From Candidatus Harrisonbacteria bacterium (lineage in GTDB: Bacteria > Patescibacteriota > Minisyncoccia > UBA6257 > UBA11618), in NCBI GenBank assembly GCA_023244835.1, contig JAHFLN010000001.1, forward strand, positions 4,912 to 68,911: DNA of 64,000 nt. The letters run 5' to 3'. Shown piece by piece: positions 8,252-63,749 of the stretch. Under the pieces are notes generated by a model, which searched no databases, had not been told where the DNA came from, and was given only the letters and a program-made list of their open reading frames with translations. The position numbers and the translations under genes are program-made. Each line of letters begins with the position of its first letter. The first letter of the stretch is position 1.

Positions 8252-8596
8252 GTGCATCCGAAACGATCGGTTCCCGCGTGGTACGATATTGCGTTTCGCT
8301 GGTTTTTATCTCTCGTTCTCGTCGCTGACGCTCTCGTCGTGTGCCATGCGTTTTCTCTGGCATTCGCATGCATGGGCATGGCTCCGCACGTGCCTGTTCC
8401 GCACGAGATCCGGAACGCCTTCGATATTTCGTGCATGGGCGCTCTTGGCATACTTATCGCTATCCGGATCGATTGGGGGTCCATGCCCGGACATCCGCCG
8501 ATTTCTGAGGATGCCGATTGGGTTCTCTTAAGGATCTTCTTAATGCTCATTTTCGTCGCCTGGGTCATGATGCGGATTATGGGGCATCCGTCATGA
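8252..8596 (+). CDS. Hypothetical membrane protein (GTG start)
   Basis: AGAAAGGG Shine-Dalgarno; several hydrophobic helices; TATAAT at 8193-8198 upstream. Confidence 0.45.
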   Translation: MHPKRSVPAWYDIAFRWFLSLVLVADALVVCHAFSLAFACMGMAPHVPVPHEIRNAFDISCMGALGILIAIRIDWGSMPGHPPISEDADWVLLRIFLMLIFVAWVMMRIMGHPS

Positions 8597-8626
8597 CTCT
8601 CCGTTGCGATCGATGCTTGTGCTAAA

Positions 8627-8671
8627 TAAAAAAAAGCCTGCTCTATCGAAAGGAATGAGCAGGCTTTTTTC
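8627..8671. terminator. Bidirectional rho-independent terminator
   Basis: A9-GCCTGCTC...GAGCAGGC-T7. Confidence 0.65.
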
Positions 8672-8768
8672 TGGCATCAGACGCATTGCCAATTATTCGA
8701 TGTGACAGTATGATTCCGCGTGAGCACATTCCAATTCCCCCCACCCTCTTTTCCAGAAGGAATTTCCC

Positions 8769-9119
8769 ATGGACCAGGATCCTATGCCTCCCGTGCATAT
8801 TCGCCTCGTCGGCATCGCGGTCGTTCTTGTTTTTGTACCAAGTCTTTGTATGTGGATAACCGGTCTCATCGCCACATGCGCATCGGCCCTGCTTTCGCCG
8901 ATTACTCCGATTTCGCTTGAAGGACGGCGGATATTCGGGATTTCCTCGATCTCCCTTCTTGCGAGTCTGGCACTTCTTCGCCTTATCATCGACCGATATC
9001 CGGGACATGAGATCACGCCGGACAAAGACGCAGGATTTCGCCGTATCTTCGTCCTCGTTTCCGTCATAAGCGCCTTGGCGCTTGTCGTGATGGCCCGGTC
9101 GTGGCGGATATTCAGCTAA
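8769..9119 (+). CDS. Hypothetical membrane protein
   Basis: 116 aa, three to four hydrophobic helices; followed by terminator. Confidence 0.45.
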   Translation: MDQDPMPPVHIRLVGIAVVLVFVPSLCMWITGLIATCASALLSPITPISLEGRRIFGISSISLLASLALLRLIIDRYPGHEITPDKDAGFRRIFVLVSVISALALVVMARSWRIFS

Positions 9120-9194: not shown

Positions 9195-9563
9195 TTATAC
9201 GATCTCTTCCGCGAGGGAGAAGATGCCGTCGAAGCCCATTTCCTTGATTTCGCGCGGGATTGGCCCGAAGATGCGTGTCGCGCGCGGCTGCTTCTTGTCG
9301 TCGATCAAGACGACCGCGTTCTCATCGAAGCGCAGGCGCGTGCCATCGGGGCGGTTTATCGCGTGCGCCGTGCGCACGATGATGCATTTCACGATATCCT
9401 TCTTCTTTACCGCCTTCCGAGGCTCTGCGGTCTGGACGGACGCGATGACCGTCTCTCCGAGGTGTGCGTAGCGCTTGCGGCTCCCGCCGAGCAGCCTGAA
9501 GACACGGACGAATTTCGCGCCCGAGTTATCCGCAACTTTCAGTATCGAACGTTCCTGTACCAT
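9195..9563 (-). CDS. rplN: 50S ribosomal protein L14
   Basis: MVQERSILKVADNSGAK L14 N-terminus. Confidence 0.93.
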   Translation of the reverse strand: MVQERSILKVADNSGAKFVRVFRLLGGSRKRYAHLGETVIASVQTAEPRKAVKKKDIVKCIIVRTAHAINRPDGTRLRFDENAVVLIDDKKQPRATRIFGPIPREIKEMGFDGIFSLAEEIV

Positions 9564-9706
9564 ACCCTGTGTTACAAATTAAGCTTATTACTTATAAATC
9601 TATTGAAACTTGATTATACTCCCGATTTCTTTATTTGCCTAGTGTGTTTGCGATTCTTTAATCCCGCATTTTGCGGGATGGCTGAATTTGTAACACGGGG
9701 CATATG
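9561..9706. repeat. Family-1 palindromic intergenic element (terminal inverted repeats CCCTGTGTTACAAATT / AATTTGTAACACGGGG) between rpsQ and rplN
   Basis: ~18 bp inverted arms 105 bp apart; left arm overlaps the rplN start codon; inner hairpin CCCGCATTTTGCGGG. Confidence 0.7.
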
Positions 9707-9707
9707 C

Positions 9708-9959
9708 TTATTCGGCCTTGCCGACGATTATCCAGCGCTTCTCTTTTGACATCGGGCGCGTGGCGTGGATTACGACCGCGTCTCCCGTCTTATATTCGTT
9801 CTTCTCGTCATGCGCCTTGAATCTGGAGTGGACGGTGTATTGCTTCAGATACTTGGGGTGGCGTTTCGTTTCCGAAACCTCGACGACGCGGGTCTTCATC
9901 ATCTTGTCGGAGACGACGATGCCCTGCCGCTTGCGTACGTTTATCGCTTTCTTTTCCAT
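9708..9959 (-). CDS. rpsQ: 30S ribosomal protein S17
   Basis: 83 aa, S17-like GIVVSDKMMKTRVVEV. Confidence 0.9.
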   Translation of the reverse strand: MEKKAINVRKRQGIVVSDKMMKTRVVEVSETKRHPKYLKQYTVHSRFKAHDEKNEYKTGDAVVIHATRPMSKEKRWIIVGKAE

Positions 9960-14455: not shown

Positions 14456-15157
14456 ATGCCTTCTCAATCGAATCCGTCGCAACGGATTCTCATGGTTCAT
14501 GCCTATGGATTCCGCGATGCCGCGCATCTTGGCGCGCTTACGCTCGCCGTGTGCAGGAAAGTCTTGAAGCATGCCGACGATTATGACCGGATCATCCTTT
14601 TGGGCGGCTGGGACACGAAAGGAAAGCCTGCCCGCCCGACTTCAGCCGAACTCATGGCTATATGGCTTATCGAGCATGGCGTCTCTCCGAACAAGCTCGT
14701 CGGCCAAATCACTGCGGGAGAGCGTTCCCGAAACCGACGGCCTGCGCGCGACACCATCGAAGAAGCAGATTTGGCGGGGATCATTCTCCGGGATCTCTAC
14801 CCTGGCGCGCATTTGCAGGAAATCCGCTTCGATGCCGTAGGCGCTTGGTTCCATGCGCCGCGCATCAAGATAATTTGGTGGAAACGAACCCCGCGTCTCG
14901 GGCGATTCCTGCATGCGTTCTCGTGGCGCATGCTCCTGCCCGACATGTGGTGGCGGATGTTCGAGGAGATTCCCGGCATCTGGCTTACTCGGCGCGATCC
15001 GCTCGGTACGGGAGATTTCTTCCGATGGTTGCGTCGTGGACGAACGCATGAGCATGTCATGAGTGAATATTCCGCGAATACCATCGATGCGTGGTATCCC
15101 GAACGATCCGTTTTCGATCGGCCTGCGGCATGCACGAGCCTGCCCGCATCGGAATGA
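14456..15157 (+). CDS. DUF218 (YdcF/SanA-like) domain protein
   Basis: AAAGGAGG Shine-Dalgarno at 14443-14450; RIILLGG...SAELMAIWLIEHGV...RDTIEEA pattern; the upstream part of track ORF 14162..15157 is antisense to rplC and discarded. Confidence 0.55.
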   Translation: MPSQSNPSQRILMVHAYGFRDAAHLGALTLAVCRKVLKHADDYDRIILLGGWDTKGKPARPTSAELMAIWLIEHGVSPNKLVGQITAGERSRNRRPARDTIEEADLAGIILRDLYPGAHLQEIRFDAVGAWFHAPRIKIIWWKRTPRLGRFLHAFSWRMLLPDMWWRMFEEIPGIWLTRRDPLGTGDFFRWLRRGRTHEHVMSEYSANTIDAWYPERSVFDRPAACTSLPASE

Positions 15158-15323
15158 CCGGCTCAATGCCCTCATTCCAGCTCTTTCGCGTTTTCTCCCT
15201 TTTTTGCCGTCTTGTCCTCATTAGGATCGGACGGCATTTGATTTTATATTCGATATGTGGCATACTAGGCGCAGCTCGAGTAGGCATATCGCCCGCTCAC
15301 CAACTTGAACAAGGAGACCGCCC

Positions 15324-15698
15324 GTGCTTAAGCGATTCGTGATCTTCATGCTTTTGAATGCCGAGGGACTTCCCCGCGGCGGCGGAGGCTGCAAAGACTT
15401 CATGATGACTGATGATGGCAAAAACATTGCTTCGTGGGATAGTCAGGATGAGGCCATTGAGGCCCTTCGAACGCGATTCCCTCTTCGATGCAATGTCGCG
15501 CAAGTGTGCGACACGAATGATAATTCTTTCGTTGAGCTTCTGCTGAAACGTGTTTGGGAGCTTCCCGAGACGCCGAAGTCGCAGCAGCAGCAACGAGGAG
15601 GAGGCGACCAGTCACGCAGCGATCGAGAACGGCCGCAACAGCAGCACTCTTCGAACCCTCCGCCTCCGAAAGGCGATGGCGGCGGCCCTTCGAAGTAA
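15324..15698 (+). CDS. Hypothetical secreted or membrane protein with low-complexity Gln/Gly/Pro C-terminus (GTG start)
   Basis: AAGGAG Shine-Dalgarno; TTGATT-17-CATACT promoter at ~15230-15265. Confidence 0.4.
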   Translation: MLKRFVIFMLLNAEGLPRGGGGCKDFMMTDDGKNIASWDSQDEAIEALRTRFPLRCNVAQVCDTNDNSFVELLLKRVWELPETPKSQQQQRGGGDQSRSDRERPQQQHSSNPPPPKGDGGGPSK

Positions 15699-28896: not shown

Positions 28897-28932
28897 CCAC
28901 TGCCAGGCCATCAAGCCAGGCAGTGGTTTTTT
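28897..28932 (+). terminator. Rho-independent terminator
   Basis: CCACTGCC...GGCAGTGG plus T6. Confidence 0.55.
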
Positions 28933-29671
28933 ATTTCTCCCCCAGGAAGATTTTCTCGAGCACGCCGGACGACAGAAGCTCCTCCGGCTTCCCTTGTGCC
29001 GCCACTTTTCCCTTCGCAAGCACATATGCCCGATCGACGATACCTAAGATTGATTTGATATTATGCTCAACAACCACGATTGCCGTCCCGTGACGCTCGT
29101 TGATCTCTTTAATATTTTCGAATACCTCCTTCACAATCTTAGGCGCTAAGCCAAGCGACGGCTCGTCGAGCAAAAGCACTTTGGGGTCAACCATCAACCC
29201 GCGGGCGATCGCGAGCATCTGCTGCTGGCCGCCCGACAGAGTTCCCGATTTCGTTCTCCGTTTTGCCTTCAGCGCCGGAAACGTTTCCATGACTTCGGCC
29301 ATGCGCCGCGCGAGCTCTTTTTTGTCGCCGACTATGAAGCCGCCGATCTCCAAGTTCTCCTCGACAGTCAGATATTTGAACACGCGACGCCCCTGCGGAA
29401 CGAAGGCGATCCCCCGCGCAACAACCTCGTGCGGCACCGGCTTAAACCGCTTCTCGTGCCATAAGACCTCGCCCGAATGGACGGGCGCGATGCCGAAAAT
29501 CGCCTTCAACACCGTAGATTTTCCCGCGCCATTCGGACCCATAAGAGCCACGATCTCGCCTTCATCAATCGCGACCGAGGCGCCGTCCAAGGCATGCACG
29601 CCCCCGTAGTGGACATGCACATCGTCGAGTTTCAGGAGAATTTCCTTTTCATTTCTGATTTCGGATTTCAT
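28931..29671 (-). CDS. livF: Branched-chain amino acid ABC transporter ATP-binding protein
   Basis: Walker A GPNGAGKST; LSGGQQQ signature. Confidence 0.88.
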   Translation of the reverse strand: MKSEIRNEKEILLKLDDVHVHYGGVHALDGASVAIDEGEIVALMGPNGAGKSTVLKAIFGIAPVHSGEVLWHEKRFKPVPHEVVARGIAFVPQGRRVFKYLTVEENLEIGGFIVGDKKELARRMAEVMETFPALKAKRRTKSGTLSGGQQQMLAIARGLMVDPKVLLLDEPSLGLAPKIVKEVFENIKEINERHGTAIVVVEHNIKSILGIVDRAYVLAKGKVAAQGKPEELLSSGVLEKIFLGEK

Positions 29672-35656: not shown

Positions 35657-36430
35657 ATGAATACATGGACTAAAAAGAGTATAGAACTGGCGCGTAAACC
35701 GGGATATTTAGATGCCTTGGGCGCTATTTATGTTATGAATATAAATCCTAGTAGACCACTAACGGAAGAAGTTGAGAAAAAAATACGAGAGGCTTTCCAT
35801 AATAGAAAAAATAAAGAGTTAGTTCATCTGTTAATTCAAAACGAAGTCTTTCCGGTCAAGGATTCTTATGTCGGATTTTTAAGACTTAACCCTGCGGCTA
35901 TTGATCAAAATCCGATAACTATCAATAGAATATCAGAAAGGCTTTACTCATTGGGGATTGAAGCACTTCTTAAGGAGGCAACTCGTCCTAAAGAGACAAA
36001 TCGTCAACTCGGACACTCATTCAAAAAATGGTTGCCTCAATTAGGTTATCCCGTACTTAATGTAGAAGAGTTTGCCAATACTCGAGGTGTGGCCATCCTT
36101 GCCGGTGGGGACGCACAACTTGCAAAATACGCTAGAGAGAAGTTGGGCTGTGAATTATCCAAAGGTATTGATTTTGTTTTAAAGAAAGGAAAGAATCATA
36201 TTATTGGTGAAGCTAAATTTCTTACAACTCCTGGAGGAGAGCAAGATCGAGGTTTTGATGACGCATCAAATTTTATTAAAGGAAAATTGCGCCCAAATGT
36301 GAAAAGAATAGCTGTTTTGGATGGCTATATCTGGGTAGAACGAACTGGTGGGCTCCACAATAAGATCGTGATGAACAACCTTGATATTTTTAGTGCTCTA
36401 CTCCTTCCCGAATATATTAAAAAGTTTTAG
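35657..36430 (+). CDS. Putative type II restriction endonuclease, PD-(D/E)xK-like
   Basis: AT-rich gene beginning 22 bp after the tRNA; candidate GIDFV...IIGEAKF catalytic motif; convergent with and overlapping the methyltransferase stop. Confidence 0.5.
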   Translation: MNTWTKKSIELARKPGYLDALGAIYVMNINPSRPLTEEVEKKIREAFHNRKNKELVHLLIQNEVFPVKDSYVGFLRLNPAAIDQNPITINRISERLYSLGIEALLKEATRPKETNRQLGHSFKKWLPQLGYPVLNVEEFANTRGVAILAGGDAQLAKYAREKLGCELSKGIDFVLKKGKNHIIGEAKFLTTPGGEQDRGFDDASNFIKGKLRPNVKRIAVLDGYIWVERTGGLHNKIVMNNLDIFSALLLPEYIKKF

Positions 36431-38187
36431 GTTGCAGAATAAACCTCAAAAGAAGCTTTTAATTTAGCTCCTTCTTTTTCTATAAGACTAATAGCATTTT
36501 TATTGAGGTCTATTCCTATCCAATTTCTTTTTAGTTCTTCAGCGGCTAGTAGAGTAGTACCCGACCCCGCAAAACAATCCAAAACCAAGTCGTCTTGCGT
36601 TGTAGAGCTCTGAATAATTTGTTTCAATAAGTCTCGATTTTTCTGTGTTGGGTAAAGAGAGCTCTCGAAACCAGGATCTTTAAAGTCCCACACGTCCTGA
36701 AGTTTCTTGCCTCGGTTTTCGTCTGCGTAGATTTTTTTTCGAGGATTCCCTGAACTAGACCACTCAATCAATCCTTCTTTATCTAGGCGTGTTAATTCTT
36801 CAGGGTTATATCTCCAATGCCTTCCTTTCGGTGGGAGCATGCCTTTCCATTCTCTGCCCGTAGGACCATTTCGTGTCTCTCCTTTAGCGTGAAGAGGTGT
36901 GGTGGCATACCTACGCCCTTTTTTGTCAATCTTGGGAAATTGTTTTATGATCTCCTCCTCAGTTAAGGCTATACGATGGTCCGTCCAAGACATTGGGTCA
37001 TGTCCATTTGGTTTTGATTTGGAATAAAAATATATTACATCTTTTATGTTCCCGAAAGCTTTCCTATCGAAATTTTTTGGATTACATTTTATTCTGGTAA
37101 TGTCATTTCTAAAATTTTCCTCTCCGAATACTTCGTCCATTAATACTTTTACATAATGTCCTATTTTCTGATCAATATGGAGGTATATGCTACCTGTTTC
37201 GGAAAGTAATTCTCTAAGAAGGATCAGTCTTTTTCTTAAAAACTCAAGGAAATCTGTGTTTGTAAGTTTGTCGCTATAAAAGTTTTCTTCGTTATAACCA
37301 ACAAAATCTTGCCCTGTACCAAAAGGTGGATCGATATAAATTAATTCGATATTGCCCTTTATATTTTTATTTTCATACAAATTCTTAAGAACACTGAGAT
37401 TGTCGCCTGCAATTAATTTATTTACAGACTTTGATCCATATTTCTTAGTAAGTTTAAGTTGAGCCGCTTTGATTTCAAGAACTTCTTCTTCCTTTATTTT
37501 TCCTCGATAAATCAACTCAGCTCCTCCTTTAGGACGACGTGCATGAGGAATCGTATGAAGAATATTTTCTGCTCTCTCCCTCTCGGAATATCTTTCGTTG
37601 GATTTAATAATATCTATAACTACACCTTGGATAGTTAACCGTTCAGGTTCAATAAAAAGAGGTAGCATTGTTTGGTTCGCAGGCTGTAGCCGTATCCTAT
37701 TTTTCTCCCTAAAAAACTTTTTAAGTGTGGCGGACTCCTGATCAATCAAAGCAACAACTTTTTGACCATTGTGTGCTACCGATTGACTCTGAATCAACAC
37801 AATGTCTCCATCGTTGATATTCTCATCAATCATACTATCGCCATACACACGTAGAGCGTAAACATCACTACTTTTAGGCATTTTCGATTTCGGGATAGCG
37901 ATTGTCTCCTTTTCTTGAATTGCTTCAATTGGCTCGCCTGCAGCAATAGTACCCAGGAGAGGAATGCTTACCAGGGGTTCGCCAGAGGAAATACTTATAG
38001 AACGTGCTTTATTTTCAGATTTATCCAAATATCCACTATCTCGTAGTTTGTTTATATGAAAATGTGCAGTAGAAACAGAGGCAAGTTTAAAATGCCTCTG
38101 TATTTCCTCTAAGGAGGGGGCATACCCTTTCTTTTTGGAAGACTCTTTTACGAAATCGAAGACCTCTTTTTGCTTTTTGGTGAGCAT
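36427..38187 (-). CDS. LexA-like repressor (HTH plus S24 peptidase) fused to beta-class amino-DNA methyltransferase (DPPF ... FAGSGTT)
   Basis: N-terminal ~205 aa align to LexA (IAAGEPI cleavage site, LRVYGDSM Ser, DGDIVLI, NGQKVVALID, TLKKF Lys); C-terminal motif IV IDPPF then motif I DCFAGSGTT. Confidence 0.8.
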   Translation of the reverse strand: MLTKKQKEVFDFVKESSKKKGYAPSLEEIQRHFKLASVSTAHFHINKLRDSGYLDKSENKARSISISSGEPLVSIPLLGTIAAGEPIEAIQEKETIAIPKSKMPKSSDVYALRVYGDSMIDENINDGDIVLIQSQSVAHNGQKVVALIDQESATLKKFFREKNRIRLQPANQTMLPLFIEPERLTIQGVVIDIIKSNERYSERERAENILHTIPHARRPKGGAELIYRGKIKEEEVLEIKAAQLKLTKKYGSKSVNKLIAGDNLSVLKNLYENKNIKGNIELIYIDPPFGTGQDFVGYNEENFYSDKLTNTDFLEFLRKRLILLRELLSETGSIYLHIDQKIGHYVKVLMDEVFGEENFRNDITRIKCNPKNFDRKAFGNIKDVIYFYSKSKPNGHDPMSWTDHRIALTEEEIIKQFPKIDKKGRRYATTPLHAKGETRNGPTGREWKGMLPPKGRHWRYNPEELTRLDKEGLIEWSSSGNPRKKIYADENRGKKLQDVWDFKDPGFESSLYPTQKNRDLLKQIIQSSTTQDDLVLDCFAGSGTTLLAAEELKRNWIGIDLNKNAISLIEKEGAKLKASFEVYSAT

Positions 38188-54335: not shown

Positions 54336-54430
54336 TATACCCCGTGTTACAAATCCGACCATATATGACCCGTCATATTAGCTCGTCCATAGCGTTTCTA
54401 CACCACGTCGGATTTGTAACACGGGGTATA
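54336..54430. repeat. Family-1 palindromic element: perfect 24 bp inverted repeat TATACCCCGTGTTACAAATCCGAC / GTCGGATTTGTAACACGGGGTATA
   Basis: Arms 54336-54359 and 54407-54430; 47 bp spacer; begins 9 nt from cdaA start codon. Confidence 0.8.
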
Positions 54431-54440
54431 CCTCGTCGTG

Positions 54441-54489
54441 AAAAAAATACAGCCGCTCTACCCGATACCGGGAGCGGCTGTATTTTTTA
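54441..54489. terminator. Bidirectional rho-independent terminator
   Basis: A7-ATACAGCCGCTC...GAGCGGCTGTAT-T6. Confidence 0.7.
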
Positions 54490-61620: not shown

Positions 61621-62022
61621 TTACTTATTCCCCGCAAGCTTATGAACCGTGAATCCTCCCGGACCCGCGAACGCCACGCCGAGCGACACAAGAAGCAGGG
61701 TTAGGGTGTACTCATAACCCCCACCCCCCATGAACCCCTTCGCTCCCGTCACGTACCAGATCGCTCCGGCCATAACGATCGCGAGCAGGATGCCTGCCCA
61801 TTTCGTCCATACCCCAAGAATCATAGCGATGCCTCCGAGGAGCTCGACCCATGACACGAGATACGCGACGAACGTCGCGAGGCCGAGTGACGCGAAAAAG
61901 CTCACCGTGCCGTCCATCATTTGGATCTTGCTCCAGCCATGGGAAACGAACACGAGTCCCAATGCCACGCGGATTAGGAACATGCCCGTGTCCGCGCACA
62001 TCACCTTGTCTTTTGACATCAT
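61621..62022 (-). CDS. DoxX family membrane protein
   Basis: DoxX-like four-helix hydrophobic pattern. Confidence 0.75.
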   Translation of the reverse strand: MMSKDKVMCADTGMFLIRVALGLVFVSHGWSKIQMMDGTVSFFASLGLATFVAYLVSWVELLGGIAMILGVWTKWAGILLAIVMAGAIWYVTGAKGFMGGGGYEYTLTLLLVSLGVAFAGPGGFTVHKLAGNK

Positions 62023-62141
62023 TGTTTTCCGTACGCCTTATCCGACGACCTTTATATATATCCATAGTATCACGACGATATCTCCTTTTCGCAACGCCCC
62101 CGATGCTTGACGCGCGACCGATAATCTCCGTATGCTCCGAT

Positions 62142-62278
62142 CATGCCCCGTGTTATAAATCCGATCTTTCCCGCGGGGAAAATAAAAAACCACGAAATCC
62201 ATATATGATAATCAGAACGATGCATATCAATGACCCCTATCAACCCGATAATCAATCGGATTTGTAACACGGGGCATG
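62142..62278. repeat. Family-1 palindromic element: CATGCCCCGTGTTATAAATCCGAT / ATCGGATTTGTAACACGGGGCATG (23/24 match)
   Basis: Arms 62142-62165 and 62255-62278, 89 bp spacer; right-arm terminal ATG is the dcd start codon. Confidence 0.8.
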
Positions 62279-62944
62279 TTACTCTCAGCACCCGCGATAC
62301 TGCGCCATATAAAGAAAGGAACGATCACGGTCGACCCGTACGACGCGAAGAATCTCGGCAACGCGAGCTTCGACGTGACACTCGGCGAACATTACTACCG
62401 CGAACATGCTCCGCAGAACGGAAACGCCGTCTTCAACCTCTATAATGAGGCGGATACCTACCGCGTATGGGGAAAGAAGCATGAGACCGCCCAGCCGTTC
62501 GGTAGAAATGACACGCCCGGCATCGGAGCGAAAGACCTGGTAATTTGGCTCGCTCCCGGCGAAACGATCCTCGCCCACACTCGGGAATTCATCGGCGGCA
62601 CGGAAACGGTGGACGCGATGCTTAAAGCGCGCTCCTCGACTGCGCGTAATTTTATAAGCGTATGCAAGTGCGCCGGCTGGGGCGACGTCGGCTATGTGAA
62701 CCGCTGGACGATGCAGATAACGAACCACAGCAGGCACTATCATATCCCGCTCGTCGTGGGCCGTCGCATCGCCCAGATCGTCTTCTTTGAAGTCGAACCG
62801 CTCGTTGAGAAGGATAACGCGGGCGCCTACGGCAAGAAGAAAGACGGTAAATATCAAGCTTCTGCCAACCTGAAGACCATTAAAAAGAACTGGAAACCGG
62901 CAGACATGCTGCCGAAGATGTGGAAGGATCGGGACGTGAAGTAA
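62276..62944 (+). CDS. dcd: dCTP deaminase family protein
   Basis: N-terminus ILSAPAILRHIKKGTITVDPYD...SFDVTLG and GRRIAQIVF dUTPase-fold motifs. Confidence 0.8.
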   Translation: MLLSAPAILRHIKKGTITVDPYDAKNLGNASFDVTLGEHYYREHAPQNGNAVFNLYNEADTYRVWGKKHETAQPFGRNDTPGIGAKDLVIWLAPGETILAHTREFIGGTETVDAMLKARSSTARNFISVCKCAGWGDVGYVNRWTMQITNHSRHYHIPLVVGRRIAQIVFFEVEPLVEKDNAGAYGKKKDGKYQASANLKTIKKNWKPADMLPKMWKDRDVK

Positions 62945-63303
62945 ATCCGAAATTCGAATATCGAAATTCGAAAACGGATCACTTCTCCGCCTTACGAACT
63001 ATCGAGCCAAAAATCATCATAAGCTCGGCGCATTCCCCAATCAGCTCGGCGCAGCGTCCCTCATCCCCTTCTAATAATCGCAACCAATATATGCTCTCTT
63101 TCGCCTCTTTGCGGCAAATCCTTATCCGCATCAAAAAATCTTTTTCGCCCAAGGCCTCGTTCGCCTCGATATAATTCGCGCCGACCGAAGCCGACGATCG
63201 TATAAGCTGTTTCGAATATTCCTTACAGCGAATGCCAATGTCCTGTCCTCTAAATCGTATACGGCCATCCGTCTATCTTTTTTTTCGGATTTCGGATTTC
63301 GAG
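62943..63303. repeat. Non-coding segment bounded by inverted terminal repeats built from tandem CGAAATYCGAA units
   Basis: Left AAATCCGAAATTCGAATATCGAAATTCGAAAACGG; right (rc) CTCGAAATCCGAAATCCGAAAAAAAA; lies between convergent genes. Confidence 0.5.
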
Positions 63304-63749
63304 CTTCTCGCTAAGGGGAGCGGGTGCAAGTGCGCGGCGAGCGATAAGGCGAGCGCGATGATAACAAGGTTTTTGATTATATACTGCCCCTCAAACGTTG
63401 GTACGAGTACGCTCTGCCACGTAAGCTCGGGCAGGACGACAAGCGGCAGAAACGCCGCGACCATGTGCAGCGCGAGCAGTGCCACCGCAAGCCTCTCCAT
63501 GCCCGATACGAGGAATGCCGCCCCGATCACCATCTCGTAGATGCCGAAAAATATCCGGAACGGGGCAAATGGGACGAACGGCAGCGCCTTCGCGAGGAGC
63601 GCCGCGACGAGCGGATCGGCAGGGCTCAGATCCATCACCTTCAAGAGGCCAAACCAGAAAAAAACTATGAATAACGCCACGCGCGCAACGGGAACGGCGA
63701 TCTCGCGCACTCCGTGAATCATCACACGGTCGAATCGGGGGAAGTCCAT
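63273..63749 (-). CDS. Hypothetical polytopic membrane protein
   Basis: 158 aa, four hydrophobic helices. Confidence 0.5.
   Translation of the reverse strand: MDFPRFDRVMIHGVREIAVPVARVALFIVFFWFGLLKVMDLSPADPLVAALLAKALPFVPFAPFRIFFGIYEMVIGAAFLVSGMERLAVALLALHMVAAFLPLVVLPELTWQSVLVPTFEGQYIIKNLVIIALALSLAAHLHPLPLARSSKSEIRKKR

Follow-up and report, generated by a model that had tools for sequence, protein, structure and literature searches.

Correia elements duplicate a TA dinucleotide at their target. Members of the IS1380 family and of the piggyBac superfamily duplicate 4 bp and have termini that start with CC.

A relationship between IS1380 and piggyBac is stated in PMC5718144. According to PMC2649163 and PMC3184786, Correia elements are co-transcribed, form long hairpins and modify how adjacent genes are expressed, by way of end promoters or of RNase III binding and cleavage; long mRNA stem-loops with such effects are described there for ERIC and similar MITEs as well. 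The small palindromes of the ERIC/IRU and RUP/BOX/SPRITE families and the Rickettsia palindromic elements are described in PMC3184786 as transcribed with their neighbours and as at times joined to an ORF at its 5’ or 3’ end, or placed within one in frame; for none of these three groups did we find a description of a start codon regenerated through target duplication. Neisseria REP2 and Borrelia IR repeats lie immediately upstream of genes (PMC3184786). Our literature search returned no report of MITEs, or of leaderless or Shine-Dalgarno usage, in Patescibacteria.

Here, we analyse a 64,000-nucleotide stretch of Patescibacteria DNA (hereafter, the window) in which a 137-nt palindrome runs into the start codon of dcd, and we show that this palindrome is a non-autonomous DNA transposon (MITE) together with its 4-bp target-site duplication. 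Like the Correia elements of Neisseria (CREE/NEMIS), it belongs to the MITEs of ~100-155 bp that have terminal repeats of more than 20 bp and lie beside genes. However, Correia elements have a conserved core and an IHF site and combine terminal repeat and core with a TA duplication, whereas the copies described here have unrelated interiors, no conserved core and a 4-bp YATR duplication. They show no sequence similarity to Correia elements, reside in a Patescibacteria host, and any RNase III or promoter effect is here only predicted. The ERIC/IRU, RUP/BOX/SPRITE and Rickettsia elements likewise have other sequences, other hosts and conserved cores, with one possible likeness: a copy from a metagenome (see below) may extend the 5’ end of a gene as ORF-fused palindromic elements do. 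The likeness to REP2 and Borrelia IR is one of position. REP2 itself carries a promoter, an RBS and an ATG and has no terminal inverted repeats, in contrast to the element here, which has terminal repeats, target duplications, orthologous empty sites and an ATG that belongs to the host. With IS1380 and piggyBac it shares the 4-bp duplication and the CC termini, but its target is YATR and not TTAA, and the link is a lead only because no transposase or full-length element with these repeats was found. The element is thus outside Correia, ERIC and similar families, from which it differs in duplication, core, sequence and host, and constitutes a new family of MITEs, hosted by a Patescibacteria species.

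A MITE inserted in the CATG that holds the dcd start codon

The features at dcd are as follows.

62107..62136, + strand: promoter-like TTGACG-18-TATGCT, putative ancestral dcd promoter, conserved in relatives
62142..62145, + strand: distal target-site duplication of copy C, CATG; single CATG in the empty site of the sister genome
62143..62208, + strand: hypothetical 21-codon uORF opening at the distal ATG copy, translation MPRVINPIFPAGKIKNHEIHI*
62146..62274, + strand: MITE copy C, 129 nt; left repeat ~62146-62166, right repeat ~62254-62274; interior unlike that of the other copies
62275..62278, + strand: proximal target-site duplication of copy C, CATG, holding the dcd start codon 62276-62278
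62276..62944, + strand: dcd, dCTP deaminase family, PF22769, 222 aa

A preliminary description of this DNA had noted two arms matching at 23 of 24 positions, and had placed the dcd ATG within the terminal CATG of the right arm. Both observations stand. The left arm (62142-62165, CATGCCCCGTGTTATAAATCCGAT) and its near-complement (62255-62278) pair at 23 of the 24 positions, a pairing that was matched in none of 100 dinucleotide shuffles of the window, and the right arm ends in the ATG (62276-62278) that opens a 222-aa ORF. Residue 1 of the encoded Dcd aligns to residue 1 of solved dCTP deaminases, including the Methanocaldococcus enzyme, and 17 homologues share its N-terminal MLLS without variation, so that the start codon is correctly placed.

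The palindrome consists of a 129-base element proper, running from CCCCGTGTTAYAAATCCGA to TCGGATTTGTAACACGGGG, and a 4-bp target-site duplication, CATG, at each end. What existed before the insertion is seen in a sister genome (contigs L022 and L024, ENA ERZ27280317) that we reached via CdaA, and in which CdaA, Dcd and S3 are 91, 95 and 97% identical to the proteins of the window. The sister has the same divergent DoxX/dcd arrangement, and its site is cleanly empty (TATGCTCCGATCATGTTACTC). The sequence before its dcd is ...TTGACGCGCGggtgccgATCTCCGTATGCTCCGATCATGTTACTCTCAGC..., to which the window is identical except for 133 extra bases after CATG. The alignment of dcd upstream regions that had been proposed as a check thus finds the element absent from L022 and also from two more distant relatives (L019 and L021), where the gene order is tmk-thyX-dcd. 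As a separate observation on this locus (61621-62944), DoxX is divergent from dcd in both window and sister and tmk/thyX are not nearby, unlike in L019 and L021.

Together, these comparisons show that copy C was inserted in the CATG holding the dcd start codon, that a staggered cut doubled this CATG, and that one CATG was kept beside the old promoter while the other was kept on the dcd coding sequence. On the evidence of this alignment, the start codon is shown to be host DNA regenerated by duplication and not element sequence, since L022, which is without the element, has an identical CATG/ATG in place. The earlier proposal that the element supplies the start codon of dcd is hence to be abandoned.

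A family of three copies with 4-bp YATR target duplications

The palindrome had been assigned to a repeated family (“Family-1”), and this was confirmed: the window contains 3 copies (9565-9700, 54340-54426 and 62146-62274) that have ~20-nt terminal repeats in common and element lengths of 87-136 nt. The other two copies and their associated features are listed here.

9565..9700, - strand: MITE copy A (136 nt) in the gap that separates rpsQ (9708-9959) from rplN (9195-9563)
9561-9564 and 9701-9704: target-site duplication of copy A, CATA (minus strand: TATG), with the rplN ATG (9563-9561) inside the proximal copy
9613..9641, - strand: promoter-like TAGGCA-17-TATAAT in copy A, facing rplN; 10/12 matches, 0.5 such sites expected by chance
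54340..54426, - strand: MITE copy B, 87 nt, upstream of the diadenylate cyclase gene cdaA, ending 8 nt before the cdaA ATG (54327)
54336-54339 and 54427-54430: target-site duplication of copy B, TATA

The copies are short, with interiors of 94 nt (A), 45 nt (B) and 87 nt (C) that have no coding capacity and no transposase ORF. When a fourth copy, from metagenome contig L081, is included, CCCYGTGTTAYAAAT is present in 8/8 arms and CCCCGTGTTACAAATCCGA is exact in five of the eight, with a sixth arm 1 base off; CCCYGTGTTAYAAAT is followed by TCCGAY in copies B and C and by TTMAGC in copy A. If the element is taken to run from CCCC to GGGG, the flanks are CATA/CATA (A), TATA/TATA (B) and CATG/CATG (C). 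CATA is not its own reverse complement, so that the duplication at copy A is a true direct repeat and not an extension of the inverted repeat. A model with a 2-bp “AT” duplication was also considered and was rejected, the non-palindromic CATA/CATA of copy A fitting a 4-bp duplication only. The target motif is YATR, and the apparent 24-25-nt arms are a ~20-nt repeat plus a mostly palindromic duplication. The flanks of the L081 copy, AATA/TATT, are inverted and not direct, which counts against the MITE reading.

Empty orthologous sites are found for copy A as they are for copy C. The rpsQ-rplN spacer measures 144 nt in the window but 11 nt in the sister (L024), and in L087 and L088, two relatives with 86-88% identity in S3, it is 7 nt; these two read ...TAAGAAACATATGGTAC and ...TAAGAAATATATGGTAC at the junction, and TATG is present there at the insertion site. 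The rplN ATG, like that of dcd, is host sequence copied within the duplication. The distal AUG of copy A lies 4 nt past the rpsQ stop and opens a 29-codon ORF. Copy B lies downstream of a hairpin followed by a T-run (~54441-54489). Its TATA duplication (54336-54339/54427-54432) falls within a -10-like TATACT box, with 6 nt between this box and the cdaA ATG. The box is regenerated beside cdaA by the duplication, but the element arm now stands in place of whatever occupied the -35 position.

All 3 copies are unchanged in same-species contigs assembled independently from other samples, and the elements are thus fixed in the species. Arm-like sequence was not found in ~150 kb of DNA from relatives.

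Near-identical arms around unrelated interiors

Among the 4 copies, no interior similarity was detected in either orientation (z ≤ 2.1), and blastn-short returned nothing. Bacterial MITE families usually have common internal sequence, and the unrelated interiors are unusual for such a family, a point which counts against the MITE reading. An apparent match of the copy C interior to 28923-28948 was discarded, being just a T-run beside a terminator. The six arms of copies B, C and L081 differ by 1 change in 114 nt, and the inner arm positions vary between copies yet are complementary within each copy. Old insertions could have randomised the interiors, since third-codon (synonymous) positions are only 59-70% identical between sister and window, but the arms should then have drifted too. 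By analogy with some eukaryotic MITE families, the copies may be recent and derived from different source elements alike only at their ends. Alternatively, the arms may be under selection.

Further members and a parent element were sought in public collections. A two-arm pattern scan of GTDB species genomes (596 Gb) gave 15 matches, all due to chance and none with the CCCC extension. In JGI metagenomes the two-arm pattern gave 54 matches, of which one is a true member (L081) and the others were dismissed as chance or as artefacts of long palindromic contigs. In some of these contigs (L036, L044 and L065, and also L039, L053, L074 and L076) the pattern was matched through long inverted repeats; in the first three, complementarity extends outward into the flanks, suggesting a fold-back artefact of assembly rather than an element. 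A 17-mer scan of viral contigs gave 0 matches, blastn against plasmid and phage collections nothing relevant, and Rfam no match at the gathering threshold nor at E up to 1. Solo or distant arms were absent from the window and from ~540 kb of retrieved loci, and no transposase domain was present among the 18 ORFs scanned. An autonomous or parent IS with these terminal repeats was not found in public two-arm scans, which, with a gap of ≤111 nt, are blind to a full-length IS.

The L081 member has identical arms; the contig that carries it is 39 kb long, has 43% GC and holds unrelated genes. It is 124 nt long and lies between the stop of a secreted-repeat protein gene and the start region of a paralogue. 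An ORF (L081 5739-7022) begins within the interior of this copy and continues across the proximal arm in the frame of the secreted-repeat protein, with a signal-peptide-like N-terminus (MMHAKRDMIRKIVPIIGFVTRGILVLAFFGVVPHAHA followed by FSW). Here the element may have been acquired as an extension of the coding sequence at its 5’ end.

Start codons as YATR targets in a genome poor in Shine-Dalgarno motifs

We surveyed start codons and Shine-Dalgarno motifs using the gene calls of the contig, and counted YATR sites in two annotated stretches. Most genes, ribosomal protein genes included, have no Shine-Dalgarno motif, and gene upstream regions are short and A/T-rich, in many cases with 6-17 nt between a -10-like box and the ATG (as upstream of dcd, cdaA, nth, the gene at 63273-63749, adk and rplX). 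These upstream regions suggest widespread short-leader or leaderless expression in the genome. The preliminary description had pointed to GGGG (62271-62274) as a Shine-Dalgarno-like sequence for dcd. We rejected this role, as only 1 base separates it from the ATG and the genome is SD-poor, and the GGGG is probably irrelevant.

Of the non-coding YATR sites, 53/119 (45%) are at a start codon, either overlapping it or no more than 9 nt away. The targets hit were the CATG of the dcd start, the TATG of the rplN start and a TATA shortly before cdaA; 3/3 insertions are start-proximal, for which p is ~0.09 under random choice of YATR; for this reason, special targeting of start codons is not needed. 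That idea was set aside also because each ATG preceded by a pyrimidine is a YATR target, and one that is preserved by the duplication.

Predicted consequences for dcd expression

TTGACG-18-TATGCT at 62107-62136 is the sole sigma-70-like site in 61900-62400. It had been described with a 17-nt spacer; the site and its hexamers hold up but the spacer is 18 nt. Both hexamers are kept in the sister and in L019, which is 82% identical, while the spacer diverges. This promoter-like box upstream of dcd is probably real. In the empty site of L022, 6 nt separate the end of the -10 box, TATGCT, from the dcd ATG, and because of this distance dcd was, we infer, ancestrally leaderless, i.e. leaderless before the insertion; in L019 the -10 box is 10 nt from the dcd ATG.

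From the unchanged promoter, dcd transcription would now start at or near A62143, in the distal ATG copy (62143-62145), which is the predicted 5’ end of the dcd transcript. The whole of copy C would thereby become a 133-nt dcd leader, in line with the earlier suggestion that the element lies in the 5’UTR. Folding predictions agree with the accompanying suggestion that the dcd initiation region lies within a hairpin stem: the RNA of 62130-62300 has a predicted fold of -55.4 kcal/mol (z = -6.4), and RNA starting at 62143 one of -55.4 kcal/mol (z = -4.7) in which the A and U of the dcd AUG are paired. The predicted leader stem is 23 bp without interruption, and the 5’-terminal AUG would pair with the dcd AUG region (CAU 62275-62277).

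If this stem forms, its most likely net effect is to lower dcd translation and make it dependent on opening of the stem. Ribosomes loading on the 5’-terminal AUG and translating the uORF through the distal arm are one candidate for opening it, and RNase III cutting the long stem is another; at rplN, the opener could be the ribosomes that terminate rpsQ translation 4 nt before the distal arm. The uORF is out of frame with dcd because the two ATGs are 133 nt apart.

Alternative explanations

We put the probability of the best overall explanation, a MITE insertion at the dcd CATG with the hairpin-leader consequences proposed above, at about 80%. A minority reading, which we regard as doubtful, accepts the MITE but keeps the hairpin out of the dcd mRNA: a Correia-like promoter inside or at the end of the element would drive dcd, and the distal arm would not be transcribed. 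CREE elements are reported to make promoters at their ends (PMC2649163), copy A has TAGGCA-17-TATAAT facing rplN, and every copy is AT-rich just inside its proximal arm, copy C having GATAAT at 62247-62252. This GATAAT, however, is without a recognisable -35 box, the scan gives no promoter-like site in copy B, copy C or the L081 copy, and the conserved promoter upstream has been left intact, with a mere 6 nt between it and the element. Counting against our main explanation, rplN is an essential gene that tolerates a sequestered start codon, which suggests that the stem may be bypassed, for instance by way of the promoter-like site within copy A.

Two further readings dispense with a passive insertion or with transposition altogether. 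In one, the arms are a dedicated cis-regulatory RNA or operator that co-regulates dcd, rplN and cdaA, i.e. a domesticated or purpose-built switch. Arms that are near-invariant (1 change in 114 nt) around unrelated interiors, with synonymous sites in the sister only 59-70% identical, would fit such a switch, as would the fixation of all copies across samples and the inner positions that differ between copies while remaining complementary within each. But this within-copy match is also expected of transposon sub-families, and the element is missing from all orthologous sites in the sister and more distant relatives, including, as a conserved RNA leader should not be, the region before dcd in L019, L021 and L022. 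Rfam gives no match, target-site duplications are present, dcd, rplN and cdaA have no common function, and a YATR target is by itself enough to account for insertion near start codons (p ~0.09). We therefore judge this reading unlikely. Least probable of all, and to our minds scarcely credible, is an inverton, in which inverted repeats surround a promoter that is flipped by a recombinase. The 20-25-bp inverted repeats around a short segment and the promoter-like site in copy A have the right form, but orientation is identical in every independent assembly, copies B and C are without a promoter-like site, and no recombinase was present among the ORFs scanned. The single orientation, the 4-bp duplications and the empty sites, the last two of which indicate transposition, make this reading unlikely.

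Other features of the window

Elsewhere in the window, a 586-aa ORF (36427-38187, - strand) has LexA DNA-binding, Peptidase S24 and N6/N4 DNA methylase domains and is adjoined by a gene for a Tsp45I-type restriction enzyme (35657-36430). From its domains, 35657-38187 looks like a restriction-modification system whose methylase has a LexA-like self-cleaving repressor module. The S10/spc ribosomal cluster is broken by small opposite-strand ORFs of unknown function in the rplN-rplX and rpsJ-rplC gaps (window 8252-9119 and ~14492-15698), and the sister has the same interruptions (L024 12043-12753).

Discussion

Taken by itself, the dcd case is a tidy but fairly ordinary example of mobile DNA in a candidate-phyla-radiation bacterium. 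What is of note in the family is that start codons are regenerated by duplication at genes that are tightly coupled or, by our reading of the empty site, ancestrally leaderless, and that unrelated interiors stand between near-identical ends. For annotation, the locus carries a warning: a start codon embedded in a repeat need not be “supplied” by the repeat. The terminal repeats are also candidate ends for a candidate-phyla-radiation transposon tool, if a transposase is found.

There is an improbable extension of these findings, namely that selection keeps the terminal repeats intact because the inserted hairpins now act as gates for translation, co-opted by a genome without Shine-Dalgarno pairing. 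If so, the AUG copy that is 5’-terminal (leaderless) or adjacent to a stop would feed ribosomes into a short uORF, their passage through the distal arm would briefly unmask the true AUG, and the output of dcd and rplN would be coupled to ribosome supply or to RNase III activity.

For MITE insertion itself, the three copies document that transposons have recently been active in a small Patescibacteria genome, even within a ribosomal protein operon, and they illustrate how a 4-bp duplication allows an element to land exactly on a start codon with the gene not destroyed. Sister and window form a natural before/after pair, i.e. a dcd that would be leaderless and a dcd predicted to lie behind a 133-nt structured leader with a uORF, which offers a possible system for work on initiation that is leaderless or independent of SD.
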